In this document: one piece after another, positions 24,019 to 64,000 of the stretch
How the letters are laid out: each line of letters opens with the position of its first letter
How positions within the stretch are numbered: the first letter of the stretch is position 1
Assembly (NCBI GenBank): GCA_044892525.1
Contig: CM097887.1
Coordinates: 24,056,001 to 24,120,000 of the forward strand
Direction: 5' to 3'
Source of the DNA: Schmidtea polychroa
Taxonomy: Eukaryota
Length of the DNA: 64,000 nucleotides
Program-made: the position numbers and the translations under genes
Notes under the pieces: generated by a model
The model's input: only the letters and a program-made list of their open reading frames with translations
Databases searched by the model: none
What the model was told of the DNA's origin: nothing

Positions 24019-24062
24019 AACCAACAAAAAGCGATGTATATAAATGTGTATAAAATAACTAA

Positions 24063-28400: not shown

Positions 28401-28640
28401 TTTGTTATTAATTTCATAAAAACTATATTCAAAATAATTTTCAAAGTCAAAACATTCACAATCATTCATAATTACATCATTAATTTTTAAATCATCTTTA
28501 AATTCATTCATTACGGAAATCTTGAAATCACAAGCATTCAAATTCAAACATTCTGTGTCAACAATATACTTACTTAAACCAAATTTATGGCTCCTAGCAA
28601 CTCCCTTGAAACTGGAGCCTCCCCTTTTAGCTGTTCGCAA
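25445..28640 (-). pseudogene. pol: Element B pol (PR-RT-RH-IN), frameshifted
   Basis: LLDTGA, YLDD, DTDAS, HKDLCHAG..CEQC, FIDFCGP, SDRG, GLVERQFRT. Confidence 0.93.

Positions 28641-31229: not shown

Positions 31230-31231
<2 letters not shown>

Positions 31232-31266
<35 letters not shown>
31232..31266. repeat. (TA)n microsatellite
   Basis: Direct read; abuts the ORF2 stop. Confidence 0.95.
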
Positions 31267-31267
<1 letters not shown>

Positions 31268-31270
<3 letters not shown>

Positions 31271-34200: not shown

Positions 34201-35650
34201 GGACAGGGCTTACAATTTTTTGGAGATCAAGAATGGTTTCGAGGATATTCTGAGCTAATAAAAGGTGAGTAGAGAGGCTATCGTCAAGAAGCGGGTCAAT
34301 GAGTACAGCAAGTTTACGATGTTTGTCAAGTAGAAAGAAGAACCAGTTGTCTTTACCATCAGACATGGGCATGATAATCTCATTCCAGTGAGCAAATTCA
34401 GAGAAAGGAAAGGTGGCAAAGAAGGTTACATAGTTATGCTGAATAAGTGCATTTCCTATGAATGGGTCTACAAAAATAGAAGAGTTTTTCAAGGCATTTG
34501 AAAAGATATATGCCTTGATTGCATGTTGTGACCATCATGTCGACTCCTTCTCAACATTATTACCGAAGATAAGGATATCAGGAAGGGGACGTTTGACAAT
34601 TTCGCTTTCAGAGAAGGTAGCCTCAAATTCTTGCGACTCAAGAATTGGGCGCAAGTTGTTCACATTTTCAGGGGGGCTATCCTGTATTTGGGAGATCACA
34701 AGCGGAGTGGGGATATTGCCTGGATACACATAAGGTTCTGGGTGATATTCGAGGATATGTTGTCGAATAAGGTGATGGGAGATCCATGATCCACAGAAGC
34801 AGTATATTTCCTCGTCAGGGTAAAAGATAAGTTTTTTATGTTTGACCTTTATGTGGTTAATAATGGTCATAAGGGGGGTGTCGATGTCAAAGATGGTTTT
34901 ACATTTATTGCGATTTTTACTATAGTTGAAGCATATGAGGTTATTGGAGGGTGAAATCCGGATTTCAGCGCGGCTCATATATTCCAGGTCGCATTGGTCT
35001 ATGTGTTGAAAGTGGGTGATGTGATTATAAATTTGTTTGAAAGTTATTGGATTTGGCGCAAATTTATTCTCACCAGGAGTTCTACATTGAATGCAATCGA
35101 TAAGAGTATTTTCGTCAATTTTTAATCTATGAAAGTCCCACGCGTGCTTAAAGATTTTTTTGCGATTATGGACAGAAACAGGACTGCAAAGTGTTGTCCT
35201 GCATTTGGACCTGCATTCGATTTTGCCCCTACCATTAAGTTTGAGAAGTATTTTGTTATCAAGTTCACTCTCATCTGCTGTTTTTGGGACGAAGGTATTG
35301 CGTGTGTGTTTGGCCAATGTTATGGGTGTGAGGTATTTAGAAGATGGGGCAGGGATATTATTCGCAATCACTTGTATTTTTTTATTAAATACTTCCATTT
35401 GTGATTGTATTCTTAATGCCTCTTGGATTTCGTTGCATTCAGATTCAGAAGGAGTAGGTGCGGTGACTTTAGGTGTACTGCTAAGCTCAGTAGCGTTGGT
35501 AGTTTTAGATTGGATAAATTCAGGTGTATTATGAAGAGAGGCAGTTGTCATAGGGTGTAGGTCAGTGTTGTTGTTGGAAGAGGAAGAGGCTGTGGGCTGG
35601 AGAGGTGGTTCTTGGTCGATAGAGGCTACACTGCTGCTCGATAGATTCAC
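31268..35650 (-). pseudogene. NeSL-like ORF2: C2H2 fingers - protease-like - RT - RLE (one in-frame TGA at 34535)
   Basis: ORFs 34535-35650 and 31268-34492 are in the same frame. Motifs WRPIS, GVKQDCPLS, LAYADD, CRHC..ETPAHIFNHC. Confidence 0.9.
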
Positions 35651-36280
35651 ATCATCTATGTCCGAGTTAAAAAGATCATTATTTGGCTGGGGATTTACAA
35701 GAGATTGAGAAGGGTTATGAGGAGTTTGAGAATTAGACTCATCTATTGGAAGGGGGTCAATGGTGTCATCAAGGTCACAGCTGTAGTGTGAGGTGTCAAG
35801 AATGTATTCAGAGCAAGAGGAGGACGAGGGGTTAGGCGAGAGATCAGAGTCATTGTCAATAGTATCATTTAATGGAGAGCGTTTAACATGGGGAAGGGCA
35901 GTGAGGGAATCATCAGTATTGTTCTCATAATTATTAATTTTATTTTTATTTTTATAAATAGAGTAGAGGGTTGTGTATTTACCCTTACGTATGATTTTTT
36001 AACAAAACAAGATTTTATTACTTTACTATTGTTATCGTTAAAAGTTGGAGGAAGGTTTTTAAGATCCTTGGGCTTATGGATGAAATCATTCGGGATAGGC
36101 TCAGAATAATGACGTTTCAAGGAAGTTCCAAGGTTTTTATTAGAAAGAGTTTGAGGTATAGTGTAAGTATTTCGATTGTCAGGTACATAATTAGCCATAT
36201 TCACAGGAGAAAGAAAGGTATCAGTTGTTTGTGAGTTTGGAGTTTGATTATAAACTAAGTTGTTTAAGGTAGGTTCAGAA

Positions 36281-37525
36281 CTAACGAGCTTTTCGCTGAA
36301 GGTGACAGTCTTTGAAGAGGCGAGTCGGCCGCAGGCCGGCGAGCTGCGTGTTTTGAGAAAGAGTGTGGTTAAATAAGTGATATTTAAACAAAGAAAAGTC
36401 TTTATTTAAAATAGATAGTTTATTCAAATTAATAAATTTTGATATATTTTGTATTATAATATTAATTAACTCACTAGAAAATCCATTAAAAGGGACTTCT
36501 GTGAAGTTTGTATTTTTATACTCCATAATTAATTTTTTAATGATATATTTAATTTTATTTTTAAAAAGTTTTTCATATTTATAATTAATTTGATTATCAC
36601 AATAATTATTCAAATTCTTATTTAACTTATCACTATTTTTAAATTTATCATTACAAGTTAAATTATCATTATCATGAGAGTCATAAGTATAATTATTAGA
36701 AGGTCTAAAATTATTAATACTATAATCTTTATAATAATTATTCAAATTCTTATTTAAGTTATCACTATTTTTAAATCTATCATTACAATTTAAATTATCA
36801 TTATCATGAGAGTCATAAGTGTAATTATTAGAAGGTTTAAAATTATTAATACTATAATCTCTATAATAATTTTGATTATGATTACCCTTTTTTAATAAGT
36901 GAATCTTTCGAGCTGGGCAAAAAGTTTTCCAAGAGGTGGCATATATATCGGGAGTTTCATTCACTTTAGCATTCTTCTCAGAATAGTATCTCTTAGGCAT
37001 ACGGTTCACTTCATTGTTACAGGTAAGAGAACTTCCATTATTGATCGGCTCCTTGTGATTAATTGTATCCGTTATTTTAGTACGTGCTGTGGCAAATGTG
37101 CCATATTGCTTGAGGATCATCCTAGCCGGGCAGTAAGATCTGATTTTCCTCGTTTCATATGGATCAGCAGGTGATTCGTCGGGTGGGGTCTCATCGGTTC
37201 TATATATATGTTTAGGATGCAATAAATTTACTTTATCGATTGGTTTATCTCTGGAAGAAGAGCCTCTCCCATGTGGATCTGAGGGGGCCGAAGGAGATCC
37301 GTGAGGTCGAATATCATCAGCTCTATTAAAAAGTTTAGATAGTAATAACAATAAGTTGTTCTTAATATTGTCTCCATTATTGGAGCTTCTTCCATCCAGG
37401 TAGGTATTATTATTCCTGGAATCCTCTGCAGATTTCTGCCCAGTGCTATGAATGATATATAGCAGAAATTCTGCTAAGCACTGGGAAACGGCGGGTAACG
37501 AATATAAAGGATTATTTTTGATCAT
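36281..37525 (-). CDS. Low-complexity Asn-rich 5' ORF of the NeSL-like element
   Basis: 414-aa frame with an internal ~44-aa tandem repeat. The start overlaps the 5' terminal hairpin, so it may not be the true start. Confidence 0.4.
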   Translation of the reverse strand: MIKNNPLYSLPAVSQCLAEFLLYIIHSTGQKSAEDSRNNNTYLDGRSSNNGDNIKNNLLLLLSKLFNRADDIRPHGSPSAPSDPHGRGSSSRDKPIDKVNLLHPKHIYRTDETPPDESPADPYETRKIRSYCPARMILKQYGTFATARTKITDTINHKEPINNGSSLTCNNEVNRMPKRYYSEKNAKVNETPDIYATSWKTFCPARKIHLLKKGNHNQNYYRDYSINNFKPSNNYTYDSHDNDNLNCNDRFKNSDNLNKNLNNYYKDYSINNFRPSNNYTYDSHDNDNLTCNDKFKNSDKLNKNLNNYCDNQINYKYEKLFKNKIKYIIKKLIMEYKNTNFTEVPFNGFSSELINIIIQNISKFINLNKLSILNKDFSLFKYHLFNHTLSQNTQLAGLRPTRLFKDCHLQRKAR

Positions 37526-37540
37526 AGAAAAAATTTTTTT

Positions 37541-37989
37541 GAGAGTTTATGATTGTAGAATATCGTTTTGTGTTGAGTTTAATATAATTGGGTGATTTTT
37601 TCTTCGATACTAAGAGTTGTCGACAGGTATGACTGAGTGACGTGAAATGCTAATGAACATGATGTAGAGTGCGGGTAATCTTATCGATGGTCGTTCCCTT
37701 GGACCAGGATCGGACCAAGTTACCTATGGGAATACGGGTAAGTCCTTCCGAGGCACCTTAGAACCTGAACCGTGAAGGAGTTAGGAGTAGTCTTAAGGCA
37801 GAGGCTCACCTGCTAACCTTTTCCGACCCGTGTGAGCAGTACCAACGTGGAACATCACCACGGGCTCATGCGTGGGAATATTCGGATGATCATTTGGAGT
37901 ATGCATGGGGAGTGTCTGAGCTAAAAGATGAGGTCTTGTATGTACGACGCTTATGTATGTATGGTTTTCTTCTCCCTCATACGCCAACA
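37541..37989 (+). repeat. A1 3' LTR, terminal 449 bp
   Basis: About 99% identical to 7353-7802, ends CCAACA and is followed by the TSD CATA. Confidence 0.9.
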
Positions 37990-45239: not shown

Positions 45240-45965
45240 TGTTGGCGTATGTGGGGAGACCAGAAAAATTTATCACCAGGCGTACAATCAAGTTCATTCG
45301 ACTGAGACCCTTCCCTAACATACTCCTAATGACTTTAATGATATTCCCTCATGTGATCCCGTGGCGATGTTCCACGTTGGTGATGCCCACACGGGTTGGA
45401 GTTGGTTAACAGGTGAGCCCCTGCCTTAGGACTACTGTTAACCCACTCGCGATTCGGGTTCCAAGGTGCCTTAGAAGGTCATACCCATCTTCGTACGCAT
45501 AACTCGGTCCGACCCTGGTCCAAGGGGACGACCTTTAATCTAATTACATTCATTCAACATCACCCTTTCATTCACACTAACCACATAATCATACATATCG
45601 AAAGTAATCACAATGAACAATAAAAAAAATAGAAGACAATAAGCAAAATTAAATCACAACATTGATTATAACCACGGAATTTGAACAAGTTAAAATATAC
45701 AGTGCTGTCAGTTCTTCAAAAATTCGATTTGCAATTCGAAGGAAAGAATCGAGACCGATTGTAAGTCACTTTACACGAAGCCTTCTCCTTCGGCAATCAT
45801 CTCATCGATGTCGACAGGTAGCCGGCAGTCCGATATAAATTTGATGCCTTCGGCCGGAACTATTCGAAAGAGTTCTTTCGAGGGGATAGAGTGGGTGGAA
45901 GAGATTTCTTTGATTGTGGATTGCGCCGCAGACAACGACGCTTCGAGTGCTGCCATTGCGTCTCT
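45240..45965 (-). repeat. Inverted fragment of the A-family LTR 3' end within A2
   Basis: Reverse-complement homologue of A1 ~7050-7802, joined directly to the RING 3' half. Confidence 0.8.
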
Positions 45966-45978
45966 ACGTTTCTGGTCA

Positions 45979-46263
45979 ATCCACTACCAATGGTTTCAGC
46001 AACGTCTCGACGATCCTGACTTAAATACCGAATATATAAAAGTACGCGAACAAGTGAAAACTCTGTCGAGGAGAATACGAATCTTGATCGAAGAGAAAGC
46101 AGCAGCATTGAGAACTTGTAACATCTGTAAGATGCGACCCGGCAGAATTCTGATCTTACCTTGCGGGCACCTCAGTCATTGCGACGAATGCGTAGCCGCC
46201 TTAACTCATTGCTCTTTATGTGCATGTGTGATAAAAGAGAAGCACACTGTTTATTTCAATTAG
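45979..46263 (+). pseudogene. A2 RING gene, 3' half (open; 5' half lost at the rearrangement)
   Basis: HYQWFQQRLDDP...CNICKMRPGRILILPCGHLSHCDECVAALTHCSLC. Confidence 0.8.
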
Positions 46264-46854
46264 CACGCGATCGTCACTCGGTGAAAGAATTGGTGTATTT
46301 AACAATTAGACTGAAACATTTTATTTTATCGATGTGTTAACATTTTAATGATAATATCGTATATCGTATATAGCGTGAGCTGAATAATGAATAAAATATT
46401 TTTGTCTGTTTATCTCATTGTGTGAAGCTATAATTCGGTCTATGATGAATCTTATTAATTTTATTATAATTTTTCACCATGGAGAAAGAGTATCTAAAAA
46501 TTTAAATTATTTACATAAAGTGGAACTAGTCCCAACATAGGGTTAAAGGGGAAAAACCGAGCCACCTTCGGGAGGTACGATATATGAAAACCGTTTGGGA
46601 GGGGATAACCGATCACCCCGAGTAAGAAATGTGAGGCGAGGTACCATCGCGGATATTGAAAAGTTTCTACGGCATGACTGATCACCATGCCAATGTAGAA
46701 ATGGATCAATGCGATCGTTTTGCGTTTTGAGCAAGGGGGGAAAGGGGAAAACACTCTCAAGCGGTAAAGATTAGGTCGACAATTAAAAGTAAAAGTGGAG
46801 AAAATGAGAATTTGGAGTAAAAGAAGAGAAGGAGAAGCAGAAGCATGCAGATTC

Positions 46855-47095
46855 AGAGATATTAAGGCCGAGCTGTTGAAGAGTCAAGCCGGTCAGGGAA
46901 ATTAAGACTGAGCTGTGAAAAGTCCAGCCAGTCCGGAGATATTAAGGCCGAGCTGTTGAAGAGTCCAGCCGGTCAGGGAAATTAAGACTGAGTTGTGAAG
47001 AGTCCAGCCAGTCCGGAGATATTAAGGCCGAGTTGTGAGAAGTCCAGCCGGTCAGGATAATGAAGATTGAGCTGTTGAAAGTGCCAGCCAGTCGT
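46855..47095 (+). repeat. Tandem ~39/78-bp repeats in the A2 leader
   Basis: Repeats of attaaggccgagctgttgaagagtccagccggtcagggaa; fewer copies at A1 ~9310-9430. Confidence 0.85.
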
Positions 47096-48207
47096 AAAGG
47101 CCTAGAAATTACAGTGAGATAAAATATTAAAGCTAGCTAGAAAACGAAATTAAGGGAAACGAATTGAAACTAGATACGGGAATTTGAATTTAGAGAAGAA
47201 TAAACGAGCTCGTAATAATTGATAATAGAATTTCATGGAGAAAAAGAAACAAGAAAGGAAAATGAATTAAAAAGATAGTAAAATAAAGAATAAGTGAGAA
47301 TAAAGAATTAACAAGGAAGAAAATAATTAAATAATTAAAGGGGATCCCAGTTAAGTAGACAAAGCTCTACAGAATTTTTTGGTTTAAACCGGGAAAACGA
47401 ATTTTGTTTTTGGCTCTAGAGTAGAACCAAGTGGAGGGAACAGATACGAAGGAATAAGCGAAACAGCGAAAACCGCGCAAAAGGATTAAGAAAATGAGGG
47501 GGGTAATAAGCAGTAACCGACAACGACCTATTTATACTATAAATGATAACTATAGATAATTTATACGACCATATAGATAATTGTTACTACCCCAAATAGA
47601 TAATTTAAAATAGACAAGAAATATGGGTTGATGGGTAATTATAATCCACGAAGATTGTATGGGGAAAAGAAGAGAAGCATAACAGAGGCCCTAAACGGTG
47701 TCTGTGCTTGAATTTTGCAAAAGGGAATGATTGATTCGTGTAAGCAAATGCAACACGATATCATTTTTTCATTGTAGATACCAATCCAACCAAGTCAATC
47801 CAGAACCAACTCAGAAGGAATCCAAAGACGATCGATAAGCAATCCAGTTAAGGAAATTCAGAACCTGCGCAGGAAGAATTCGGAGAAACACGACAATCTA
47901 GCAGAACAAACCAAGTCAGAACCCGCTCAAAGTAAAGAAGAACCCAGAGAAGACAAAGAGACAGCACAGGAGAATCACTGCCGACCCAAGAACGCTCAGA
48001 TCATCAAGTAATCAAGGTGAACTTTTATATAATTTAGACCAACTCGAGAAACTTAGAAGATCACGATCATCACGCTTTGCAAGAGGATCATCCCAAGGAT
48101 CAAGGAAATCAAGGAAAAATCAAATAGAAGATAAGGAGAACCCGATATCGGAAAATATATTAAATCGATCGAGAAGTAAAGACGACCTAACAGATATAAC
48201 AAATAGT

Positions 48208-51200
48208 TTGACAACATCAACAGACGATTTATCAGTTCATAGTCTATCCGTATCATTAAATAATTTAAGAGAACCAGTGGAAGCACCCGAAATAATCATG
48301 ACGAATCCTATACCAACCATTACAAAAACCGAGGAGTATAAAGAGAAGTTTAGAGGCGAACCCTTCAATGGGAATGCGAATAAATTAGCAACATTTATAA
48401 TTAATTTCGAAGTTTATATAATGGTGTGTGGATGGACACCGGAAGCGATCAGTAAAAGAATGCCTTTGTTTTTGTGTGATAGTGCACTCGAGGTATATCT
48501 GGAAGCGAGAGAAAGAAATACGAAATTAGACGACTGGGAAAGTATCAAAACATTTTTGAAGAAAACTTTCGGAGCCAGCAAACCAATAAATCAAGCTTTG
48601 GGTGAACTGGCGAGTAGAAAACAAAGAGCAAATGAGTCAATAACGTTATACGCAAGTGAATTACGGAGATTGGCAAAGAAGGCCATGAACGGAAACTTAC
48701 CGGAAGAGAATCTGATTGGTTACTTTGTAGAAGGATTACGCCGAGAAGAGGTAAGAGCCTCGGTAGGATGTCAGATGTGCAAGACACTAGAAGAGGCCAT
48801 AGATTGGGCCACAAGATGCGAACTTCACCTCCCGGCACAAATGAATGTCATGCAGGAGGAGGGAAGAATCGCAGCAGCAACGGTAAAAACAGAAAAGGGA
48901 GATAATAACAATCATGAACCAAATATGAATCAGTTTATACCGGGAGCACACCAAATTTTTAAACCACCACAAGGACGACCTAGTGGAAATGTTAGTGATC
49001 GCAACAATACAAATAACGGGAATAATCCCAATATTAGGAGAAATATGACGGACAATAAACAATGTCGAACGTGTGGAAGACCAGGACATTGGGATAGAGA
49101 TTGATACCGAAACGCAAATTGTAACAGGTGCGGACGACGAGGGCATACGGAGAATATATGCCAAACAAGAGGATGCTATAACTGCGGTCAACCAGGTTAC
49201 ATCTCGAGGGAATGTCGAGAAAGGGGCCAACAACAGCGACCACCACAGCGAAATAGTAATTATACACCGAATCCACAACGACAAAGTAACCCCAGTGAGG
49301 GAAAGCAAATAAATGTTATGCAAGAAATTTCACAAATGAAGCAGATGATGCAACAGCTGATGCGACCAAGACAAGAACAAGCACCACAACAAACACAGAA
49401 TATACGTATGATGAGGAGCACCGAAAACATTAACAATTATGAAGTACAACAACACGCACAAGAATGGCAAAGATTACAAGCCGAGGAAGAGAGAATAAAA
49501 AGAGAGCGAATTCAGCAACGACAAGAACAACCGTTACGAATAAATATGATGAAAATGGTAAAAGAGATAAAAGAGCAGTATTGTTACAATTACGGGAAAA
49601 ATCCAAGAGTAGTACCCATGACCGAACCAGAGAAGCCAAAGGAAACGATAACAGAAAGCAAAAGAGAAAATCCCACAACACCGCTAAAGGGAAATCAGAG
49701 AATTCAACAAATATTCTGGAAAAAGATAAAAGATAGAATTGAAAGAGAGCATGAGAAAACGAAAACAGAAGCAGACGCGGAAAATAACAAAAACGAGAAA
49801 CAAAATAATCATCTAAACCATGATATGATACAAGAATTAGAATCGGAAGAATCAACGATATTCGAAAATAAAAAATTAAAGAAAGTACCGAGGATGAGAA
49901 ATTTACGAATTAATATGATGAAAACGACAAAGGATATATCATCAACAGATGACGAGGAAGATTATGTGAGTAGTCTCGGTGGAGAAATATTACAGTTAAA
50001 TGAAAACATCGAACAACCAAGAGAAAAGATTGAGGAGAAGGAAGACGAAAATGAGAGTGAAAGCGATATGACAAGCGAAAGTGAAGATGAGAATATTGAA
50101 ATGAAATTGAGAAAAGAAAGAGAAGAAGCGATAAAACAAGTAAAAGAAATACTTCCAGTGGTAGTGCGAAACCAGGAATTTATCGACATTATACCATATA
50201 GACGCTTCATAAAAAAGATAATGAAACTAGAGAGAAACGAAAAGGATCTAATACCAAGCGAGGAGAAAGCGATAATAAAAAAGTATATGGAGAAAATGAA
50301 ACAAGCGGAAACAACACGCTATGTAATAAAAATCGGAACGAGTAAAGGACTCGAAAGAATATGGATAAAATATACAGTCACGGACGAGCTGTTTGATTGG
50401 ATAAGAGAACATTTGGGTAGCTCGAGGAAAAAAGAGTATCTGTATCAATATCAAGGAGAGCAAATCAAACCGGACATGCGCCTAATAAATACATTGATCT
50501 GGCCAGGAGAAACCCAAATATTAAAGTTACATAAAGAGAAACAACCGGTCAATATCCACAAATGGGCTAAAGACGCCAAGGCCGAATATGATTTTAACAT
50601 CAAACTAAAACTGGAACAAATAAAACAATGCACTATAAGACGAAACCTAGATAAGTTAATCAAACAAATCCAAGAACAAGTAGAAGATAACTGGGAATTA
50701 CTCCTAGCAAGACGAACCCCAGCTATGCATGAACTAATGAGTCGATTACGAGATACGGAACTATTCAGAATGAGCGATTGGAAAACCGTTAATTTGATCC
50801 ACAAATATGGAAGATTAAAAGAAACGCAACCAAAGAAATTGGAAATAACCATATGGTTGCCGAACGAGGAGAAACGACGAATAAAAATAAGCAACCAGAG
50901 TACGGTGGACGAATTGGTAGAAAAGATAAATTAAGAGATAACGGAAAAAGTGCGAAACGAGAGTGATGATGGCATGATAGACGATGTAGTTATTATGTAC
51001 GACAAAAGAATACTACGAGCTGAAGATGACACCTCGTTAAGCGAAATGGGAATGTGGGATAATCATCAAATAATTAGACAGGATGAAAACGCTATATCAG
51101 AAATCAGTGGAGATAATTAAAATTCATCAACAGTGGTTAAAAGAAAAAGAACTACAAGGAAAAATAAAGAAATTGAGTACTAGATCTTGTAGACGAACCT

Positions 51201-53128
51201 CATGGGAAAGGGTGTGGAACGCAGAAAACAAAGAATGGGAAACCAAGAAAGGAATCTTCATAGAAACAGAAATCGATGAGACAGAAAGCAAACCAGAGGA
51301 GGAGAAGGATGAACCTCCCGGATACGAAGAAGAGGAAATGGAACCTGTATCGGACGACGAAAGTGAAACGGACGTCACGTCCGAAAGTGAAACGGAAATC
51401 AGACACATCCATGCGATGAGAAAGAAGGAACGTGAATATGCCGATATGGACAGTGAAGAAGCGATAGAAGCAAGAGAACGAGAGGAGAAGGAAAGATATA
51501 AACAGTTAGCTGATATCTTAACATTGGGAGCAAAAAATCAAAAACGACAAGTAGTAGCATTGGCTAACTTCATCCTAAAGTCATCAGAAAATATCCACAA
51601 TTTGAGAGATATGGCAAAGGCGATAGAGGAATACCGACAGTATAACGAATGGTATCCAGAACAGCTAGAACAAATTATTAGAAAATGGAGAAATCAAGAA
51701 TGGGCACAAGATACCCAGGAAAGGTATCGAATCCGAGTAAAATGTCCCGACAAAAGCATCGAAGAAGTAGAAGTGCATCCAACAACGAAGATCAGAGAGT
51801 TGAAAAAGAAATTAGCATACGAAACTCCATTTCACCTGCAATTATTCGGAAAATCGTTAGATGATAATGCGGACGTAGGAATAACACCTATGAGATTGGA
51901 AGAGGTGAATACGTTAACAATGGCGGAAACATTGGGAAAACCAATTAAAAAGAAAAGCAAATCCAGTAAACCTCCAAAAGGTAGCTTGAGTACACCAAGT
52001 CCCGATAAAGTGCCAAGCAAATCAAACGAAACCGAGGAAGTCGAGGAAATCATATTAGAAGATAGCGACGAAGGAGCCGGAGAAAGATCGCCAATATTGG
52101 TGAAATGGCCGACAGGGGCAGAAATATGGACAACGAGCAGACCGTCAACTAGCTACCAACAACCAAGCAAGCTGAGTATTGAGGAAATCATGGATAATAC
52201 AACAGAAACTGAAACGGATGAACAAATAAAGAGACAACAAGAACCAGCGAAACTGCCAACCGAAGGGAAAAATGATAAAATCATAGACGAATGGAATGAA
52301 TGGCTGAGAAACAACGATAGCTCACTACCAAGAACAGATAACGAGAGAAACCCGAGTTACGAAATGACAAGAGAAGCAGGAACAACAATGGAAAAGCGGG
52401 CAAAAGGAAGACCCAAGAAACAAGGAGAAAAACCAGAATATAAAACCAAAGAACAATTAAAACAAGAACAAGGACAAGCCAGATTAGAAAAATTAGATAA
52501 AATAGTGTGGGATCTAAAAGAGGCCCAGCCAACGATCGAAAGAGGTGAAAGGTGGATACGAGAGCTAATAAAAGATATGCTAATAATAACAAACCCGCAA
52601 TTGAGACGATTATGGCAACGGCAAGTAGCGAGTGTAGAAGCCAGACAACTGTGGAATATAATGTCAGAAATAATCCCGAAACTAATTAAGGAAAAAACAA
52701 AGACCACTAAAACAGATTGGGAAGAGACACGGAGAATGATCGAACAATTAACTTTAAACGCGAACGACGACGAACATCACTTAGTGGTAATAACGTATCA
52801 AAAGTACAACCTGATGGGACTAGCAGCAAGAAAAATACCTAACAAACAATTCGCAAATCATGTAGAAATGACAGTTGCAATCATTGAAAATTCAATCGAA
52901 CCACATATTATCCACGCCGGAGGGTGGAAAAGGCTTATACAAGCGCCACGAAAAAACGACCAAGAGAGATCGATGCAAATCAGGTTGAAAAAATTGCTAA
53001 ACGAGCTAGAATGCGAGTTGCCAATGAAAGATCCAGCCAGCAGAAAAGCGTCGATTAATAATGATGACCATGATGATATGGATGCTATGCATAAGTGGAG
53101 CAGCAGGATTTACAATTTACGATTGTGA
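48208..53128 (+). pseudogene. gag: A2 Gag-accessory-Bcl-2 polyprotein
   Basis: 48208-49104 and 49318-50934 share a frame with one TGA at 49102. 51083-53128 runs from the acidic linker and UBL3 directly into the Bcl-2-like domain (~52550-52945). Confidence 0.88.
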
Positions 53129-53902
53129 TAATTCGATAATGAAAGAGAGATACTCACTGAGAGACATAGAAGAGTAGACAAGCATCACCAAATAAATTAG
53201 AAGTGGTACAAACAAAAGTCTCATATCACGTGTATCAAGAATCGGATTTTATCAGAATGAGAATGCGTAGTGTTATATTATAGTTTTTGATTATTTGATT
53301 TGTGTGTGTGATATGAATTTGTTATGTTTGGAGGCTGTTATTTGATGGGAAATTTGAAGAGCCCGATAGAGTCACCGATAAAAAAAATGTGTTGGGACAA
53401 TCGTGGTGTGTGCTGTGTAACAACAAATAAAAATAATAATCAACAATAATAAATTACAAACTTTATTAACTAAAATAATAAATAATACTTTCTACAAACT
53501 CTAGTACAATTCTGATACTCCGAGATCAATCCAATTGCCAATAGGAAATGTTGATAATCAGATTGGAACAACGGCAAATATGTGCTTTATTTCAAAACTA
53601 GAATAATGGAAATTGTTAGACGCAATTAAATTCAAGTCTTCTTCAAGCATTTATTTTTATAACAACTTCAAAAATTGTGCCGTTTACTAGAATATTTAAA
53701 CACCGAGGCGTGATAATTATTAATATTAATGTAATTACTGGTCATACATTTAATTGATTTAATTTAATATAATTTAATATAATATGATATAATTTAATAT
53801 AGAATTTAAATATACAAATTTAACAGAAATAATTATTTCTACTAACTGATCTCACTTCTACCATTTAACCATAATGATTTTATATAGAGATTTACTAACT
53901 CC

Positions 53903-56900
53903 TTACATCCACCCTTCTTTAAAATGCTTTAACTTTTCTATATTCCTCGTTATTTTTCTCCCGTTTTCGTCTGTTAATAAATAACTTCTTTCATGATTTC
54001 GTTTTATTACTGTGTATGGTCCTTCATATCTCTCGTAATCTTTGTTTCTAATTTCTTGTTTCACCAATACTTTGTCCCCCACTTCTAAGTTCCTAGTTGT
54101 GCCAATTTCTTTCGTTTGCTGTCTTTTAGCCTCTAATTTCCACATGATTTCATTCCTATCCACTTCATTATTACTATGCCATTGCGATCTATTAATCTTT
54201 CTTTCAAATATAATTTCTGCTGGACTCACTCCAGTAGTTTTTTGAGCTGTCGCATTTAAAACGTATTCTATATCAGGTATTAATTCTGCCCAGCTTTTTT
54301 TAACTCCTTCTCTGAGTGACGCGTTAATATAGTCTCTTATAGTACGAAATTGTCTTTCAATTACACCATTAGTATTATGATGATACGGACTCGAAAATAT
54401 CAACTCAATTCCTGCTGCCTTTGCTAGTTCTTTAATGCTATTTGCTTCGAAATTTTTTCCACAATCAACATGTAGTTCCTTAGGGGCTCCAAATTTCAAT
54501 ATCCAATTATTTAACAAAACTGCCTTTATTGTATTTTCATCTTGCTTTCTAATAGGAGTTAGAGATATGTATTTACTGTAATCGATTATTGCACAAATAT
54601 ATTTTTCTCCTCTGAAGGTTTCTCTTAATGGACCGCAAATATCCATGTATATTTTCTCCATAGGTTCTGAAGCTTGAATTACTTGGGTTTTTTCTTTTGA
54701 CTTTGTAGTTAAAACTTTGTTTTTCTGGCATGCTTCACATATTGAAATAGTCTCTTTTACTTCGTTTAGCAAATCTTCTATATCAAATTTGTTCCTAATA
54801 TATTTCATAACTTTTTCTACTCCTGCGTGGCATAATAATAAATGTGTTTCCTTAATCATTTCTCGTCTTTTTGTTTCTGGTATCCATATTTTGTTTTGAT
54901 TGGTATAGATAATATTTCCTTTTAACATATATTTATTATTTTTCCTTTCATTTATTTGATCTTTTATATCTTGTATTTCTGCATTATCTCTTTGCCATTC
55001 ATTTCCATTATTTTCGGTCATCAATGTTAACAATCTAGTTTTTAATCGCCCTGATTTGGGGTTATCATGGTCCATCAAACATTGTACACATTTGCCGCAT
55101 GTATTTCTAGACAGCATATCTGCATTCGTATGCGCCGTACCTTTTCTGAACTCCATTTTTATGTCTTAACTGCTCAAGTAATTTATCCACGTTTGGAACT
55201 GTGCTGTTATCGGCTTCTTTGTCGTTAACATAAAAGTTATTGCTTTATGATCAGTGCGCAAAACAAACCGTTTACCGTATAAATAATGGTTGAAATGGCG
55301 ACAGAAATAATATATAGCCAAAAGCTCTTTTCGTGTTATACAATATCCTCTTTCATGGCTACTCATTGCATGTGATCCATATGCAATAACGTGTTCATGC
55401 CCCATTTCATCTCTTTGTGATAATACAGCTCCAATTGTATCAAAGCTTGCGTCTGTATCTAATATGAATTCTTTCTTGAAATCTGGAAATGCGAGAATTG
55501 GCGCTGTAGTCAACGCCATTTTCATTTCTTCGAAAGCTTTCTCACATTCCTCAGTCCAGATTATTTTTTCACTATTGCTTCCACATATGCTTTCTAGCGC
55601 TCTTGATTTTGTTGCATATTCCTTAATAAATCTCCGATAATAGTTACATATACCTAAAAAGCTTCTCAAATTCTTTATACACTTAGGCCTCTGAAATGAT
55701 TTAATAGCCTCAATTTTACTTTGATCTGTCCGAATCCCCTGACTGTTAATAATGTGCCCTAAAAACTTTACTTCGCTCTTTAATAACTGACATTTTTCTG
55801 GGTTGATTCTCAATTTAGCTTCCCTTATTTTCTCTAGAACTTTTCCAAACACATTGTAATGTTCTTCAATTGTTCTTGTAAAAATTAAAATATCGTCTAA
55901 ATACACCATAACTCCTTCTTTCCATAGATCTTTCAATATTTTTGTCATTAATTCTTGGAATGTACCTGGTGCCGCCGCAATGCCAAAAGGCATTCTATTT
56001 AAACAAAATTGCCTTTCTTTAGTAGAAAATGCTGTCTTTTCTTGCGATTCTATGTCCAATTTCACCTGATAATAAGCGTTCCCAAGGTCTATAGAACAAA
56101 AGTACTTAGATCCATGTAATGTATCTAGAATTTCTTCTACATTCGGCATAGGAAAAGCTTGTCTTTCAGTAATCTTATTAAGCTGTCTAAAATCTAAACA
56201 AAGTCTGATATCTTTTTTGTCTTTTTTCCACACGCATACTAACGGCGTATTCAAAGGTGAATTACATCTTCTTATGATATCATTATTTTCTAAATTTTTT
56301 ATAGCAGCATTTATTTTCTCCACTAAATTGATGGGTTGTTATCTGGGTTTTATCATAATTGGCCCTTCTTTTGTGATGATTTTATGTGCAATTAAATCAG
56401 TACATCCGATATCCCAGTTATTAGCCATAAAAACACTTTTATTGTTTTTAACAATCTCTAACAGTCTTTTATTTTCGTTTAATCTTAGAATTTCTTTTGC
56501 TTTTTGACATCTCTCGTTATCTGTAATCTTTTCCCCAAATCTAGCTTCTATTTCACACACAAATTCATTATATCCTTCTTCATTTTGCTTGATGTAGTTT
56601 AATTCAATTCCAAACTCTTTCTGCAATTCCACTCCGCCTATTATATCTGGAACAATATTTTTAACTATTATAAATGTTATTTTTCTTTCCATATTACCAA
56701 TTCTAACATCAATATATATTTTTCCGATTGTCTCTAATTTACTATCATTTGCACATCTTTACATCTCATCTGTTTTTATGATTTTCACATTCACTAATTT
56801 TTCCACAACTGCTTCTGCCATTACATTTACTCTTGCTCCTGTATCTAGTAAGCATTCCATTCTATAGCCCTGAATTTCAAGAGTTGTACTCGGTCTACCT
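53903..56900 (-). pseudogene. pol: Element C pol (frameshifted)
   Basis: LLDTGA, YLDD, DTDAS, HLLLCHAG..CEAC, YMDICGP, GVIERQFRT. Confidence 0.92.
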
Positions 56901-57291
56901 TGCATTTTGTCATAACTCAATTTCGGTCGTTTCCATTCATCTTTAGTGAAAATATTTTGCTCCTCTGATATTTCATTAATCCACCCAATTTCCTTTCTCT
57001 CTAATTTATCTTCTGCCTTTTTAATAAATTTATAAACTTTTTCATTTACTATTTTATTATTATATTCTGCTTCTTTAATTTCATTATACTCTTCTTGATT
57101 CTTAGGATTATTATTATTATTTATTAAAGATCGATCAGCATTAAAATAACTATAACATTTAAAATTATTTAAAGGAAACTTTTTAAAATTACAAATATTA
57201 TTACATAAAGGTTTTACATTATTATATATATAAGGATTATTTACATTATTAAAATTATTATGACCAATATTTACATCAATATCAAAATTAC

Positions 57292-58332
57292 CTAGTATAT
57301 TGCTCCGATCATTGCCTCCCGTGTCGAAGCATGTACTTTTGGGTGCTGAATATCCTCATATTTGTCTTCTGCATCATCTGAATACTCAAGTGGCATCGTC
57401 TCATCATTAGGTTCAATTGCTGCAATTGTTCTTCCTGGATTGTTGATCTTTTGTTGATAGCTTGTGGTTCGATGGGCATAATAATTATTGTTTCTCATGT
57501 TTGAATTAGTTTGAAACTTCCTTCTTTCCAAATTTGTATAGCAGTCAATCTCCTTATGTCCACGTAAGTGACATCTCTGGCATTGAATCGTTGAACATTC
57601 TCGCCGTCCGTGGCCTTCAACTCCGCATGCAAAACACGTCATTTTCTTTTTCATTTGGCATTCTCGACTCACATGACCAGTTTTCTTGCATGTCCAGCAT
57701 TCCAATTGTCGGTTACTGACGTTTCGCTGCTTGAAATTATTATTTCCGTTTACCATTCCTCTTTGAGCAACATCTCTGTAGCTTCTGTAGTTTTGAACAA
57801 CCGGTGAAGTCTTCACAACATTAATATGGCCCATAATTTTGTTTACCTTTTCTAATTTCTTTATTGTCGCTTTTATTTCTTCTGATGTTTTCAAATCTTT
57901 CATCTCAATCTCTTTTTTAACTTCTCGATCTCTTACACAGTTTGTAAGCAGGCATTTTTCTATTTCTTCTTCATCCCATTTGTGCGCTATTAATTTCTTT
58001 GTCATCTTTTTAATTTTCTCTATAAAAGTTTCGGCTGAATCTGATCCTTGTTCATAACTCAAAGCTTCTTTTAGATCATCCATTAATGATGTCAGTTTTG
58101 AAAATGTATATCGAAGTTTCTCTTCCATAGTTTTTCCTTCGGCTGCTTCATAATCTTCCATTAGCGATCTGTCAAGTAATGTTGTAGTTAATATTACTTG
58201 CATCCTAATTGTTGTTTTTGTCGCGCCAAAAAACCTTTGACAATCCTTAATAAAATTTTCTAAATCATCGCCTTTGTGAAATTTCTCAGGTAAAAGTCTG
58301 CTTATCAATAAATCCGTGGTCGTGGTCGCCAT
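57292..58332 (-). CDS. gag: Element C Gag
   Basis: MATTTTDLL...; three CCHC-type knuckles. Confidence 0.9.
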   Translation of the reverse strand: MATTTTDLLISRLLPEKFHKGDDLENFIKDCQRFFGATKTTIRMQVILTTTLLDRSLMEDYEAAEGKTMEEKLRYTFSKLTSLMDDLKEALSYEQGSDSAETFIEKIKKMTKKLIAHKWDEEEIEKCLLTNCVRDREVKKEIEMKDLKTSEEIKATIKKLEKVNKIMGHINVVKTSPVVQNYRSYRDVAQRGMVNGNNNFKQRNVSNRQLECWTCKKTGHVSRECQMKKKMTCFACGVEGHGRRECSTIQCQRCHLRGHKEIDCYTNLERRKFQTNSNMRNNNYYAHRTTSYQQKINNPGRTIAAIEPNDETMPLEYSDDAEDKYEDIQHPKVHASTREAMIGAIY

Positions 58333-58919
58333 GTTAGACGCAATTAAATTCAAGTCTTCTTCAAGCATTTATTTTTATAACAACTTCAAAAATTGTGCCG
58401 TTTACTAGAATATTTAAACACCGAGGCGTGATAATTATTAATATTAATGTAATTACTGGTCATACATTTAATTGATTTAATTTAATATAATTTAATATAG
58501 AATTTAAATATACAAATTTAACAGAAATAATTATTTCTATTAACTGATCTCACTTCTACCATTTAACCATAATGATTTTATATAGAGATTTACTAACTCC
58601 TTACAGAAATGTAAGTGGTTTGCTCCTGGTTTGATCAAAGACAGGAATGATTTTCGGTTTAATTCCGAGATTAAGCCAATTGACAATAGAGAACTTTGAT
58701 CAAAAACTGGAATAATTTTCAGTTCAAATCTAATCTTCGTTTATTCAAATTTTTATCGATTTTATTTTTCCTATAGCGATAATTTACTATAGTAAATTAT
58801 CGCTATATAGTTTTTTTTTTAAAAATCTGGATTTCCCAGATGGTGGCATTTTATATTTTAGTATTCACAATTCCTAATTGTGAACACTAAAATATTAACA
58901 AAAATAGCTGTACATTACA

Positions 58920-61030
58920 CGTAGTATCAAAAAGGGTATTAGCATATTATTGTGGACAATATTCATATTCAACTCTCATACTACCCGGATTAGATAAAGA
59001 AATAGTACCCATACAAAGAGAGGACTGCAAAGAGATTTTCAAAACCGGAGCGATGAGAATCAGAGAGGGAGTAACAATACATGGACAAAGCGGAATGATT
59101 AAGACAGAAAGCATTTATGTAGCCGGACGAGTAAAAGCAAGTGATGGATCATGTAACGGAGGTACTTATACGATCAGAGGAGAGGTGATATCAGGGGTAG
59201 AAGTAATCAAGTCCTATACAGTAGAGCTAAAAGAATACGAAGCACAATTCGACGCAAATAATTATCAAATGAAAACAAACCCAGCATGCAAGGCTAACGA
59301 AAACGTATGTAGAACCGGAGTGTCAACCATTATATATGAAGCTAATACCCAAAAATGCCGACTTCAATTGTTAAAAAGTGCCTTGTTTAATGAAGTAAAA
59401 TGAGAAATATACGAAAACGAAGATGACGATGATGAGAATGGAAAAATAAGAATGCGAAATGGAAAACCAATACCGCCATCGGCCAGAGAAAAAAGGCTCA
59501 CAACACAAAAAACACCAACGGCACTAATCACGGACGATCCAGACGTAGGTATGAGATTCATCAAAGAGAAAGAAACCACCAAATGCGATAGCATAGTATA
59601 CAGGACAAACTACGCAGGCATCTATATGTCAAGGCAAATAATAGATAAAGCAGTGGGAAAGATAGCCACGGAGGATGTAAAACTATACCTATACGCAAAC
59701 AATAAAATGGATTTCTTATTTCACCGAGGGCAAACGACAATGCAAAAAGTAAATTACGATCTTATTCAAAACGACTGTTCATTGAACAAAGAGATACTAA
59801 AAACCAAATTAGCTATCGCAATAACACACCCAGATAATACAATGCCATCACTCCCGTTACCTGATGGACATTTTGGTAGAATGGTGGGAGAAGTGATGTA
59901 CACATACGCGTGCACCAAGACGTTTGCACGAATGCCAGAAAAACATACAATACCACCAGGGAAATGTGCAAATGAATTAGAAATTTGTTTCAAAGGCCAA
60001 AACAGATTTGTTCAACCCGTCACCAGAATCATGAACCCACTTGGATTTTATCCAAGTACATTTAATTGTTCAAATGTGTACGGACCATTATACGAAAAGT
60101 CCGATGGGAAATGAATAATGTTACCGGTAAGGGCCGAAGTACAGGAACCCAAAAAGTTCGGATTAATAGAGCTTGCAACGGAACAAGATTTCAAACCGAT
60201 AGACGTATCAAACGGAGGTATGTATAGTATAGTATGGCCCATACCTCCGTTTGATACGTCTATCGGTTTGAAATCTTGTTCCGTTGCAAGCTCTATTAAT
60301 CCGAACTTTTTGGGTTCCTGTACTTCGGCCCTTACCGGTAACATTATCCATTTCCCATCGGACTTTTCGTATAATGGTCCGTACACATTTGAACAATTAA
60401 ATGTATTTGGATAAAATCCAAGTGGGTTCATGATTCTGGTGACGGGTTGAACAAATCTGTTTTGGCCTTTGAAACAAATTTCTAATTCATTTGTATACGC
60501 CAGAGGATTTAGAAACAGCACGATTAAACGTACTTTTCCCAGCCAGGCGGGAATCAATTTTGTCAAATATGGTTACCATAACCGGCGGAACAAACTTTCA
60601 ATCGGGTCCAAATTATGAATTGCTACTATCACCTGATCATTTTCAACAAGCCACGTCAAACATGATGAAAGCGATGTGGGAAAGATTTCTAGTGTTCGGA
60701 CAGATGATGGCGGGAATATTAGGAATCATTCTAATTATCCAAATTGTCAGAGTAATACTAACTCAAATGTTAGCATGTTTTGATATATACAAGAGAGAAA
60801 AGAAAGTAAATTGGAAATTGATAGTAGGGTTCCTACCATTCTTGGCAAAAACAATGGTGTTACACGTCATTCAAAAGACATACATAGAATAAAACGATTA
60901 ATCAAAATACTGACAAAAATAAAAGGAACCGACGAGGAAGTTGCCAGGCGATTCCGGAAAACAATGTACGATGAAGCAACAAGAGCACCATTAAAAAAGA
61001 ACAAACCAAAATTTCTGGACAGATTTAGAA
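58920..61030 (+). pseudogene. env: A2 env, main part (5' part at ~53060-53270)
   Basis: Colinear with A1 env; stops, an inverted duplication and a 1-bp deletion near 60865. Confidence 0.85.
59969..60493. repeat. 254-bp inverted duplication (fold-back) in A2 env
   Basis: Arms 59969-60222 and 60240-60493, 17-nt spacer, two mismatches seen. Confidence 0.92.
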
Positions 61031-64000
61031 ATCGATCGAACAGCAGTGATAGTGATGATGATGATAACTGGAACGATAAATATCCCTATCCAAGTAGAAA
61101 CCCTAACGAAAAACAAATAGAGACAGCGCCATATTGGGAGAAAGAAAAGAAAAATACTTGGATAGCCAACGGAAGCTATATACCACCAGATATCGTTGGA
61201 CAACAAGCAGCGTCGTTAAACATAACACAAAATATGTATCCACAGCTACCAAGTCAACCAGGTATGAATTACATGCCAACCAGAGGGACCAGGAGTCTGG
61301 ATCAAACAGATGACGTAAGAACGATAGCAGTGATGAGTACACCAGGAGGTCCAGCAGTAACAGTTATGACCCAAATTAACGGGAAAGAAACGAGTGTAAT
61401 GATAGATACAGGTGCTAATGTATCAGCAATAGCCATCAACCAAATACCCGGAAAATATTGGAAAGACATCGAACAAACAACTATTCATATTATCGCATGC
61501 AGTAAAGAAACGGTGGACGTAGTAGAAAGATGGTGGACCACGTTGAGATATCAAGACAACGAAATAGAAACCTATCTAGCAGTGATACCAAAACTGAGTG
61601 TACCATGTATAATTGGAACAGACTTGATGCCGGAATTGTTCAAAGAAGTGGTAATCGATTTAACAACCATGTGCTTAAAAGACAAAACGGGTAGAATATG
61701 CAAGATGAATGCAATAATTAGATGTCCGGAGAAAATAATTGTACCAGCGAAGTCACAAATGATATGTCAAATAAAAGTAGATACCAGAATGGAAGGAGAA
61801 GCCATCTTCGAACCAAGCAGATCATTCGAAAAAAGACGAGAATTACCACAAGTGAGAGAAATAATAACGATAAACAAAGAAGGAGAAATACCCATCAACA
61901 TCACAAATTTCGAGGAAGAAGACAAAATCATATATGAAAATGAAAGATTGGGTAGATTAACACCAATGATAGACATCGAATTACCAAAAGTCACGAATGA
62001 ATCAACCAAAGCCGACGAACTGGGGACAATTGATACCACATTATTAACGGAAAACGAAAAGGAAAAACTTCAACAACTATTGATAGAATATAAAGATATA
62101 TTCGCCATTTCAGATTTGGATTTGGGAGCATGTGATGTCACACTACACGCAATACCATTGATAGACGAAACCCCGATTGCATTACGTCCATACAAACTAG
62201 CGGAAAAACAAAAAGAGATAGCCGAAGCAGAAGTGCAAAAGATGTTAGATGCAAAAGTAATCGAACCAAGCTGTTCACCGTGGCAATTTCCAGTAGTCAT
62301 GGTAAAGAAAAAGGACGGTACACAGAGATTTTGCATCGATTATCGAAAATTAAATGCAATAACAAACAGAGACACATACCCATTACCAGACATCAATGAG
62401 ATATTACTTATGTTACAGGGGGCCGCATATTTTACGTCTTTAGATCTGAAAAGCGGATATTGGCAGATCAAAGTCAAAGAGGAAGACAAGGAGAAAACAG
62501 CATTTACATTGGGCCGAGATCTATACCAATTCAGGAAAATGCCATTCGGACTGACCAATGCCCCAGCATCATTTCAGAGATGCATGCATTTTGTCATGCA
62601 CGGGATCAAGCAGTGTATGGTATATATTGATGACTTGTTAATATATTTAGCAACATTCGAACAACATTTGGAAGATATCAGAAACGTGTTCATCCGATTG
62701 AGACAATGGAAATTGAAACTCAAGCCATCGAAGTGCGATTGGGCAAAAGAGAAAGTTACGTTCTTAGGACACATAGTTTCAGCAAAAGGAAAAGAACCAG
62801 ATCCAAGAAATATAGAAAAAATAAAAACATGTCCAGCACCAAAAACAGTTACCAAAGTTCAAGAATTCTTAGGATTATGTGGATATTATCGTAAATTTAT
62901 TAAAAACTATGCAGGTATTGCGAAACCAATCCAAGAATTAGTGAAAAAAGACATTTCGTTTATCTGGGGAGCAGAATAACAAAAGGCATTTGAGACATTA
63001 CGAGATAAATTAATTGAAGTCCCAATACTAGTACACCCAGATTTCAAGAAACTGTTCTTGTTAGCAACAGATGCAAGCGGATATGCAGCCGGAGCAATAC
63101 TGGGACAACTAGATGAGGAAGGAAAAGAAAGAGTGATCAGATACTACAGCAGAACGTTTAAGAAACATGAGAAAAACTATTCCGTGACAGAAAGAGAAGC
63201 ATTAGCAATAATACAAGCTATTAAACACTTTCGATATTTGTTGTGGGGACATGAAATATGTATAACAACAGACCATCAACCATTAGTATGGCTCGGACAG
63301 CATAAAGAAGCTTCAAGTAGATTGATGCGATGGGCAATGCAATTGCAAGAATATTCACCATTCATAAAATTCAAAGCGAGAAGAGCAAATGCCAATGCAG
63401 ATTGTATGTCAAGATTCATCTTTCCCGATTTAGTATATCACGAAATGCAACAAAAATGTCTAATGGTAGCAGAAGATCTAGATTTCTGCCAATTACGGAA
63501 AGACCAACAAGGTGATGCAGAATTGAAACAAATTATTGAATATGTAAAAACGGGGAAAGCAGAGGCATATGAGAAAGATCAAAAACTAAAAGAGCATATG
63601 GATAAACATCGGCATCGATATATAATAGAGAAAGACTGGCTATTGATAATGGATGGCGAAAAAAGACTAATGTGTATTCCAGAGAATAGACGTAAAGATT
63701 TGTTGACACAATATCATGATGGAAGACTCGGAGGGCATATGTCATCTAAAAAGACGTTGGCACGAATGAAACAAAAGTATTTCTGGCCTACATTAACCGA
63801 AGACGTAACGGAATGGGTGAAAAATTGTCTAACCTGTGCAACTAGGAAAAACACGGGAACAAAATGGAAGGCACCATTAACACCAATGCCAGTGCCAGCA
63901 GAACCCATGACAATGATATCAATGGGCGTAGTCGGTCCACTACCAGAATCAGATAGAGGAAATATCTACATATTGGTGATGACAGATTATTTGACTAAAT
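60811..64000 (+). CDS. pol: A2 Env tail fused to Pol: protease, RT, RNase H, integrase (one stop at 62977-62979)
   Basis: HSKDIHR...FRNR (Env tail) is in frame with MIDTGAN, YIDD, ATDASG, HDGRLGGH..CLTC and the integrase core start. Confidence 0.93.

Follow-up and report, generated by a model that had tools for sequence, protein, structure and literature searches.

How does an LTR retroelement that reads Env between Gag and Pol in a single frame place its enzymes on the correct side of a membrane? The question is raised by 64,000 nucleotides of Schmidtea polychroa contig CM097887.1 (hereafter the window; coordinates are positions within it, on the forward strand unless stated). Judged from its sequence, the window holds two damaged copies, A1 and A2, of a Burro-type Ty3/gypsy retroelement, assigned to Burro by traits, most of those tested being present, and not by identity to Burro-1 to -4. 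In natural copies a single reading frame takes in Gag, a gB-type Env and Pol, the likely product being one membrane-threaded polyprotein. We put at roughly 0.6 the probability that this chain is processed by signal peptidase and by the element's own protease (PR), which would release a Pol held in the cytosol on the Env tail.

The pol order PR-RT-RNase H-integrase is of Ty3/gypsy (Metaviridae) type, as are the end features, namely TG...CA LTRs, a target-site duplication (4 bp in A1, and 4 bp in the two of five other genomic copies where it is legible) and a primer-binding-site-like sequence. The last may resemble a tRNA-Pro primer site; ARAGORN found no tRNA. The LTR-to-LTR span is 25.2-27.0 kb in 5/5 copies, and two copies with unbroken LTR matches (3.8 and 4.3 kb) measure 29.5 and 31.3 kb by coordinates, so that LTRs of ~4 kb and an element of ~30 kb agree with the size of Burro. 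Recent insertions with near-identical LTRs (99.4-99.8%) are present. The big ORF has ~4,630 codons from the first Met region to the last stop (coordinates, one copy), to which a conserved Met-free leader preceding Gag adds ~100; its range is ~4,600-4,700 codons, compared with 4,900-5,100 aa in Burro, and env sits in frame with gag before it and pol after it. Beyond integrase, the ORF continues for ~1,250 residues with ankyrin repeats in the same frame and a further hydrophobic segment, a part that the initial annotation overlooked, as it did the pol deletion of A1. A TRAF/MATH gene forms a separate ORF downstream of pol. Pfam searches detected no BIR domain in the ORFs scanned, where the only RING was of C3HC4_3 type, and no dUTPase-like domain in the PR-RT spacer; the published Burro calls of both used HHpred. 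Before env, a putative Bcl-2-like domain matched PF00452 at E 0.021 in copy L037, short of the cut-off, and at E 0.00096 in relative P0007, and the region had no match to relative P0012 or in the atlas search. Ubiquitin-like matches in L037 were weak (E ~0.01-0.13).

A1 opens with a 5' LTR (TG...CA, 4811-7802), whose 4-bp target duplication recurs at the element's 3' end (37989). The primer-binding-site-like sequence (7810-7827) lies 7 nt 3' of this LTR, and other copies have it after their 5' LTR too. There follow a remnant of an accessory RING (zf-C3HC4_3) ORF (8572-8751; A2 counterpart 45901-46260), Gag, which is broken into two frames and comprises a capsid domain plus three CCHC knuckles (12401-13792), a mid-polyprotein part with acidic and coiled regions and weak ubiquitin-like matches (14051-17074), the candidate Bcl-2-like domain (17046-17460), ending with a BH2-like GGW motif (17421-17456), and an internal signal-peptide-like segment (17589-17639; A2 counterpart 53061-53108). 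The latter adjoins the N-terminus of a gB-type Env (PF24664), whose ectodomain and TM (17640-19357; TM 19301-19357) are split over three frames. A second hydrophobic segment, the basic tail and a deletion junction (~19637-19674) occupy 19406-19663. Downstream accessory ORFs (19983-24725), collinear in full copies, include a TRAF-like gene with RING, zinc fingers and MATH (20423-21868), and the 3' LTR (24992-37989) survives as two pieces, at 24992-25280 and at 37540-37989, which match the 5' LTR at 99.1-99.3% and are separated by other, nested elements. One stop-to-stop frame (18440-19663) links the ectodomain (PF24664), TM and tail (from 19466) as far as the FRNR motif (19622-19633), as the initial annotation had read it. 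A1 is a pol-deleted derivative, and the oddity is A1, not A2. The deletion took out pol and most of the 3' part of the ORF and is private: its junction is spanned by one of 40 scored matches (best 40 of 910 candidates), which rules out a widespread pol-less subfamily. A spliced product is likewise ruled out by short homology, rather than GT-AG ends, at the junction.

A2 is one element whose 5' half (~45970-53270) and 3' half (from 58920) are divided by a nested insertion in env (53271-58919, reverse strand), a TG...CA unit with a 5-bp target duplication that contains a gag-pol gypsy element (53614-58605). Upstream of it, Gag is followed by the Bcl-2-like domain, the signal and the Env start, with several breaks (47902-53270); downstream, the Env ectodomain and TM (58920-60760; TM 60704-60760) carry stops at 59401 and 60112 and an inverted duplication at ~60240-60493. 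Behind the TM lie the second hydrophobic segment (segment 2, 60809-60862), with lysines on both sides and a proline that splits it, and then a basic Env tail with a low-complexity linker to PR (60868-61332), which is under purifying selection. Cleavage at a candidate protease site at the PR N-terminus (61321-61338) would put the catalytic Asp at position 25 of the mature enzyme. Pol (PR, RT, RNase H and integrase zinc finger, 61333-64000) contains a stop at 62977 and runs past the window end. Two further claims about A2 proved correct. Its tail is joined to PR and RT without a stop, the frame 60784-62979 holding the tail (60868), then PR (DTG, 61402-61416) and then RT (YIDD, 62623-62634), with RNase H and the integrase zinc finger resuming in the same frame beyond 62977; and the 1-bp deletion proposed near 60865 relative to A1 is a one-base gap before 60866, which parts the A2 TM from the A2 tail.

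The single frame holds without comparing the broken A1 and A2, because natural frames can be read in genomic loci. The Env TM helix, tail and PR share one natural stop-free frame in 28 of the 30 best-matching loci, a set biased by having been picked for likeness to the junction, and RT shares it too in 23/30; the exceptions are A2 itself and L010. The whole 1.2-kb junction is covered in 40/40 scored genomic matches (best 40 of 605 candidates), and with 28/30 loci in frame A2 is not a one-off recombinant. Among 20 ten-kb stretches, TM to tail is open in 19 and tail to PR in all 20; every copy among them is interrupted somewhere between the first Gag motif and RT, and each of 17 intervals from Gag to RT is open in most copies (lowest 10/17). 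The 19 frame-changing indels in the 19 copies compared fall at 19 different places. The proposed Gag-Env-Pol order in one frame is thus upheld by the loci with TM, tail and PR in line, by the mostly open intervals and by the relatives described below, and the scattered indels and open tail-PR interval leave no obligatory stop or frameshift from Env TM to PR. A programmed frameshift after Gag was considered and rejected: 5/17 copies are shifted in one interval, but the sites differ. A scan of one copy showed no slippery heptamer from TM to PR, and 28 stretches were free of 2A motifs. In the tail and linker dN/dS is 0.03-0.06, with the linker at 0.04-0.06, like RT and the ectodomain, indicating purifying selection, with the PR value from 3 copies, the ectodomain value from 7, and related copies whose ratios are not independent replicates.

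Because a single genomic frame leaves spliced RNAs possible, it does not establish 1:1 synthesis. Env-less Gag-Pol RNAs or pol-less RNAs could arise from this frame and shift the ratio away from 1:1. Copia makes Gag through splicing. An excess of Gag is, to our knowledge, the rule in every LTR element apart from this one, which favours such an account, as does the conserved Met-free leader, suggesting that expression is not plain. We nonetheless consider splicing very unlikely, given that the pol-less junction of A1 is private (1/40 scored), has short homology and lacks GT-AG ends, and that both Env junctions are held in frame by selection. Contigs aligned to L037, from three presumed RNA runs plus one of unspecified type, are short pieces; they gave no joint among the matches listed for the presumed RNA runs and bear on neither level nor splicing.

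The arrangement recurs in a second family of the same genome, in which Env is ~35% identical, the TM-segment 2-tail layout is the same and the PR motif is seen in one of three printed frames. HMMER retrieved 994 relatives at E ≤ 0.001, and word-index protein searches only 3. Among 19 long public relatives, ten have PF24664 followed by a protease in one chain, five of these with RT and two with a Gag-type domain upstream. Two to four protease-like domains stand in tandem behind Env in six of the ten fused relatives, and the TM-PR linker in relatives is ~110 to 360 residues long.

The Env ectodomain has 560 residues and 14 Cys, and its match to PF24664 (E 1.7e-70) indicates homology to chuvirus/mononegavirus-type glycoproteins. 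A profile search of the PDB with Env returned herpes gB in 34/35 matches, all weak (E 0.006-0.36); a single-sequence search found none. The internal signal lies ~1,600 residues into the chain, and its hydrophobicity is low in this family (KD19 1.26-1.52, 7 copies). All 14 of the relatives printed have a signal-like segment ahead of the Env start. Such a signal might often be missed, giving one ORF two fates, in which a cytosolic Gag-(Env)-Pol would assemble as Gag-Pol and bring Pol in with Gag, and the inserted part would supply Env. Candidate PR sites on both sides of Env, some distance off, would suit this arrangement as well, but the signal is clearly stronger at the same place in relatives (KD19 ~1.6-2.0 in several), and an untranslocated disulfide-rich ectodomain with 14 Cys would likely misfold; we regard it as unlikely.

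Segment 2 is weaker than the TM, with KD19 1.41 versus 2.53 in this element and means of 1.30 versus 2.09 in 15 long relatives; the rows were grouped according to how much sequence follows the TM, and the means retain the TM-less fragments P0022, P0026, P0029 and P0076. In retroelement-type rows the ends of segment 2 carry Lys/Arg in 9/10 and 8/10, and its centre a Pro in 9/10, the Pro being a trait of related sequences rather than independent events. Directly after it come 11 Lys/Arg in 34 residues, a basic stretch that fits the positive-inside rule. Segment 2 matches in hydrophobicity the signal that must cross (KD19 1.41 versus 1.26-1.52), which counts against non-crossing, and is not clearly amphipathic (moment 0.24), which counts against a leaflet-dip model. 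If segment 2 really crossed the membrane a second time, the inserted form would have its Pol in the lumen and would then serve as Env only. Its conservation across PF24664, stand-alone glycoproteins included, with KD19 at least 1.6 in 10/129 rows, argues for a second pass; only 10 residues separate its two lysines, however, the chain beyond is strongly basic, and recent insertions (LTRs 99.4-99.8% identical) need a working cytosolic Pol, making a luminal Pol extremely improbable.

Beyond the observed frame, order, selection and conservation, we infer a processing route of five steps. Gag and the accessory domains would be made in the cytosol (step 1). The signal after the Bcl-2-like domain would enter the ER, and signal peptidase would cut just ahead of the Env N-terminus; the signal helix would then anchor the Gag half to the membrane, as at the core-E1 junction of HCV (step 2). 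The 560-residue ectodomain would fold in the lumen with the TM as stop-transfer (step 3), and segment 2 would dip into the cytosolic leaflet without crossing, so that the tail, PR, RT, RNase H and integrase would remain cytosolic (step 4). PR domains would meet on Env oligomers and cut at the site that lies 24 residues ahead of the catalytic Asp, as well as at similar sites within Gag (step 5). Seven sites resemble the candidate protease motif, one at the PR N-terminus and all outside the ectodomain, for a motif chosen after seeing the sequence and a chance of ~0.2 that none of seven would fall in the ectodomain. Pol would reach the budding site via the membrane it has in common with Gag, not as a Gag-Pol fusion.

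The same polyprotein and topology could also have PR free Pol early, the Env tail marking only the place of synthesis and Pol being packaged by binding genomic RNA, as in foamy viruses. The candidate cut directly at the PR N-terminus agrees with early release, and the variable TM-PR linker of relatives (~110 to 360 residues) suits a spacer better than a docking part; against it, within this family the constraint on tail and linker equals that on RT, and retroviral proteases are generally inactive until assembly, and we judge it improbable. More tentatively than the cytosolic route itself, and with considerable doubt, we suggest that signal peptidase parts Gag from Env as the chain is made, that Pol is packaged without a Gag-Pol fusion by riding the cytosolic tail of a gB-type trimer, that Env oligomerisation dimerises and activates PR, and that the tandem protease-like domains elaborate this switch. 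If true, the fusion would be a natural reporter that chuvirus-type glycoproteins keep segment 2 from crossing the membrane.

In errantiviruses of the strict, Drosophila gypsy type, env is a third ORF after pol, is expressed from a spliced RNA and encodes an F-type fusogen; with env before pol, in frame and of PF24664 type, the present element is not one of these. Non-canonical nematode ERVs reportedly place env before pol in a metavirus and carry a glycoprotein captured from an RNA virus. To the extent of the title of Sacco et al. 2022 and text citing it, they share with our element an env ahead of pol and an RNA-virus-derived glycoprotein. The initial annotation had treated the strategy as unfamiliar for an LTR element. 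The arrangement is not a discovery: an in-frame env between gag and pol is published for planarian Burro (PMC6431247), and PMC13524379 gives the gene order in three phyla.

Burro and GYPSM1 are giant gypsy-like planarian elements (PMC6431247, citing Grohme 2018 and Jurka 2007). As described in that paper, Burro resembles our element in its ~30 kb with LTRs, its huge ORF with three-CCHC Gag, ubiquitin-like and Bcl-2-like domains (both weakly matched here), in-frame env, PR-RT-RH-IN and ankyrin repeats, its TRAF/MATH and RING accessory genes, and an env like mononegavirus fusion proteins. It differs in that MATH/TRAF lies inside ORF1 or upstream in the two published cases, rather than in a separate ORF downstream of pol, and in that the published env is tied to gypsy Env, gB (class III) being what the profile indicates for ours. 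GAG-ENV-POL errantiviruses with HSV/gB-type ENV, which include Smed_errantivirus_1-6 (PMC13524379), share the gene order, a gB-type Env between signal and TM, a flatworm host and 14.5-18 kb over three genes; the Env start here is nearest Smed_errantivirus_5, by eye about half identical. The main text of that paper does not treat the fusion, Pol topology or processing, and no account of this processing route was found in the literature covered. In a laboratory planarian, knocking down PIWI raises the level of Burro RNA (PMC8532177), which makes the processing question testable on endogenous material. Atlas and other Belpaoviridae with single-ORF Gag-Pol-Env likewise carry Env in one polyprotein, freed by cellular proteases with no separate env mRNA, but their Env comes last, Pol stays joined to Gag, the lineage is BEL/Pao and the fusogen is class II (PMC9094657). 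At the HCV core-E1 junction (PMC5402940), the capsid-side protein ends in the envelope signal peptide, and a single chain threaded through the membrane carries the enzymes after the envelope, although HCV is an unrelated RNA virus without reverse transcription. If processed as proposed, the element described here would be a reverse-transcribing element with flavivirus polyprotein logic, its enzymes coupled to the envelope and not to the capsid.

Both frames that the initial annotation had described in the two damaged copies of the element, A1 and A2, are present. The A1 frame (18440-19663) holds Env ectodomain, transmembrane helix (TM) and tail, and the A2 frame (60784-62979) carries the tail shared with A1, then protease (PR) and reverse transcriptase (RT); after a stop at 62977 the same frame resumes into RNase H and an integrase zinc finger. 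The proposed 1-bp deletion of A2 near 60865 was located: aligned with A1, A2 lacks one base ahead of 60866. A2 is a single element with env interrupted by a nested insertion (53271-58919, 5-bp target duplication) and further damaged by two stops and an inverted duplication (59969-60493, ~250 bp, giving a long hairpin).

A DNA search with the Env-PR junction as query returned 605 candidates, and the whole query was covered by each of the best 40, which were scored. Among 30 fetched loci, selected on junction likeness and therefore uninformative about the number of copies that lack it, 28 have a single stop-free frame through TM, tail and PR, extending to RT in 23. Of 20 stretches of ten kb that extend as far back as Gag, 19 have an open frame from TM to tail and all 20 from tail to PR, and each capsid-to-RT interval is open in a majority of copies (minimum 10/17). 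No two of the 19 frame-changing indels share a site, and five copies have none from Gag to RT (relative to the ruler copy), so no frameshift is obligatory and the claim of one frame from Env TM to PR holds. Tail and linker to PR have dN/dS of 0.03-0.06 (A2 or locus L031 versus other copies), similar to RT. Splicing of the RNA from this single frame, as an alternative to the processing model below, is quite improbable. A1 (whole element 4811-37989, 4-bp target duplication, LTR pieces 99% alike) is the exception: its Env tail joins straight to the end of the ORF found in full copies, a junction spanned by 1 of the 40 scored matches, A1 itself. None of the 20 ten-kb stretches is fully intact, each having at least one break or deletion; despite this, LTR pairs 99.4-99.8% alike in five copies (L099-L108) indicate that the family moved recently.

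Nine other copies, and the continuation of A2, carry ankyrin repeats beyond integrase in the same ORF. In the nine, the ORF ends ~1,900 residues past the RT start, where accessory ORFs follow, including a TRAF-like gene; one such gene, whole (RING, zinc fingers, MATH), lies downstream of pol at 20423-21868 and is open in several copies. Ahead of the first Gag ATG, ~100 methionine-free codons are open (A1 12476-12790; A2 47980-48297; loci L032-L050). This leader is moderately constrained (pN/pS 0.28-0.60) and opens with ACG in strong start context in 17/17 copies and A1, A2 differing at that codon; a non-AUG start there is possible.

Env matches PF24664 (E = 1.7e-70), and 34 of the 35 PDB matches to its profile (108 sequences) are herpes gB, all weak (E = 0.006-0.36). 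A second family in the same genome, with Env ~35% identical, has TM, second hydrophobic segment and tail likewise; PR lies 216 residues further along in one of the three frames printed, and frames of at least 3,334 residues hold 8 of its 68 best matches. Among 19 long proteins from the 150 library hits listed, 10 carry the fusion-protein domain then protease in one chain, five of these with RT and two with an upstream Gag-type domain. Six of the 10 (P0001, P0004, P0005, P0006, P0009 and P0016) have two to four protease-like domains in tandem directly after Env (Pfam stretches and D[TS]G motifs), compared with one in the window family. Other relatives include P0124, with the PF24664 glycoprotein fused C-terminally to immunoglobulin domains, and the BEL/Pao-type proteins P0002 and P0091, with a PF24664-type Env after pol.

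Ahead of the Env start lies a signal-like segment, both in the window family and in 14/14 relatives printed; it follows a weak Bcl-2-like domain match. The ectodomain ends in one strong TM. Were this signal leaky, a cytosolic Gag-Pol-like form would arise, which we consider unlikely. The second segment after TM is present throughout the family and is weaker than TM in the window family (KD19 hydrophobicity 1.41 versus 2.53), with two lysines flanking ten residues, a proline in their centre and a basic stretch behind. We take this segment not to span the membrane, which would keep Pol cytosolic. Two features speak against this reading: a hydrophobicity matching that of the signal, and the lack of a clear amphipathic pattern. 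A second membrane pass seems very improbable. Retroviral proteases start ~24 residues ahead of the catalytic Asp; a candidate protease-site motif, chosen post hoc, occurs six times in the Gag half and again 24 residues ahead of the PR catalytic Asp. Early release of Pol, with packaging guided by RNA, has a similarly small chance to that of a leaky signal. In the best model, to which we give a probability of roughly 0.6 from sequence features, the polyprotein would be cleaved first by signal peptidase and next by the element's own protease, Gag and Pol coming together on the same membrane. A last hydrophobic segment lies ~50 residues before the ORF end (KD19 1.94; residues ~1866-1884 of the frame at locus L054; window 19641-19673), and Pol may thus have a membrane anchor on either side.

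Two ordinary gag-pol gypsy elements on the reverse strand, ~68% alike in pol, lie in the A1 3' LTR (25445-29830) and in A2 env (53614-58605). A non-LTR-type RT (RVT_1 with zf-RVT; 31268-37546, reverse strand) is nested in the same A1 LTR, and two ORFs upstream of it gave no Pfam match. A Polinton-like cluster after A2, just past the window (fetched loci L051:6584-9381 and L052:167-4622), encodes a double jelly-roll capsid, an integrase with a phospholipase A2-like domain and further ORFs. At 1761-2396, a weak Helitron helicase-like match (E = 0.006) fell under the cut-off.

The initial annotation implied that the strategy was new for an LTR element, but the arrangement is already published: for planarian Burro elements, PMC6431247 places env in frame between gag and pol, and PMC13524379 describes GAG-ENV-POL elements whose ENV is of the gB type from three phyla (Nematoda, Bryozoa and Platyhelminthes; nine are from flatworms) and credits the nematode case to Sacco 2022. 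The gB likeness of the window Env agrees with the HSV/gB class of that paper. A processing model for such a chain was not found in the literature searched or in the main text of PMC13524379; delivery of Pol on the Env tail and Env-driven protease activation, if true, would be the part that adds interest. The window element is not a strict Drosophila-type errantivirus and matches Burro in size, ORF layout and ankyrin and TRAF content, a likeness judged by these traits. Of the other Burro traits, the Bcl-2-like domain gave a match under the cut-off (PF00452, E = 0.021; E = 0.00096 in relative P0007), the scanned ORFs gave no BIR match, and the PR-RT spacer, where Burro has a dUTPase-like domain, gave no Pfam hit. 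The element family makes a planarian host likely. Its Gag-Env-Pol arrangement is real, conserved and known, and the element is one more family of the same kind.
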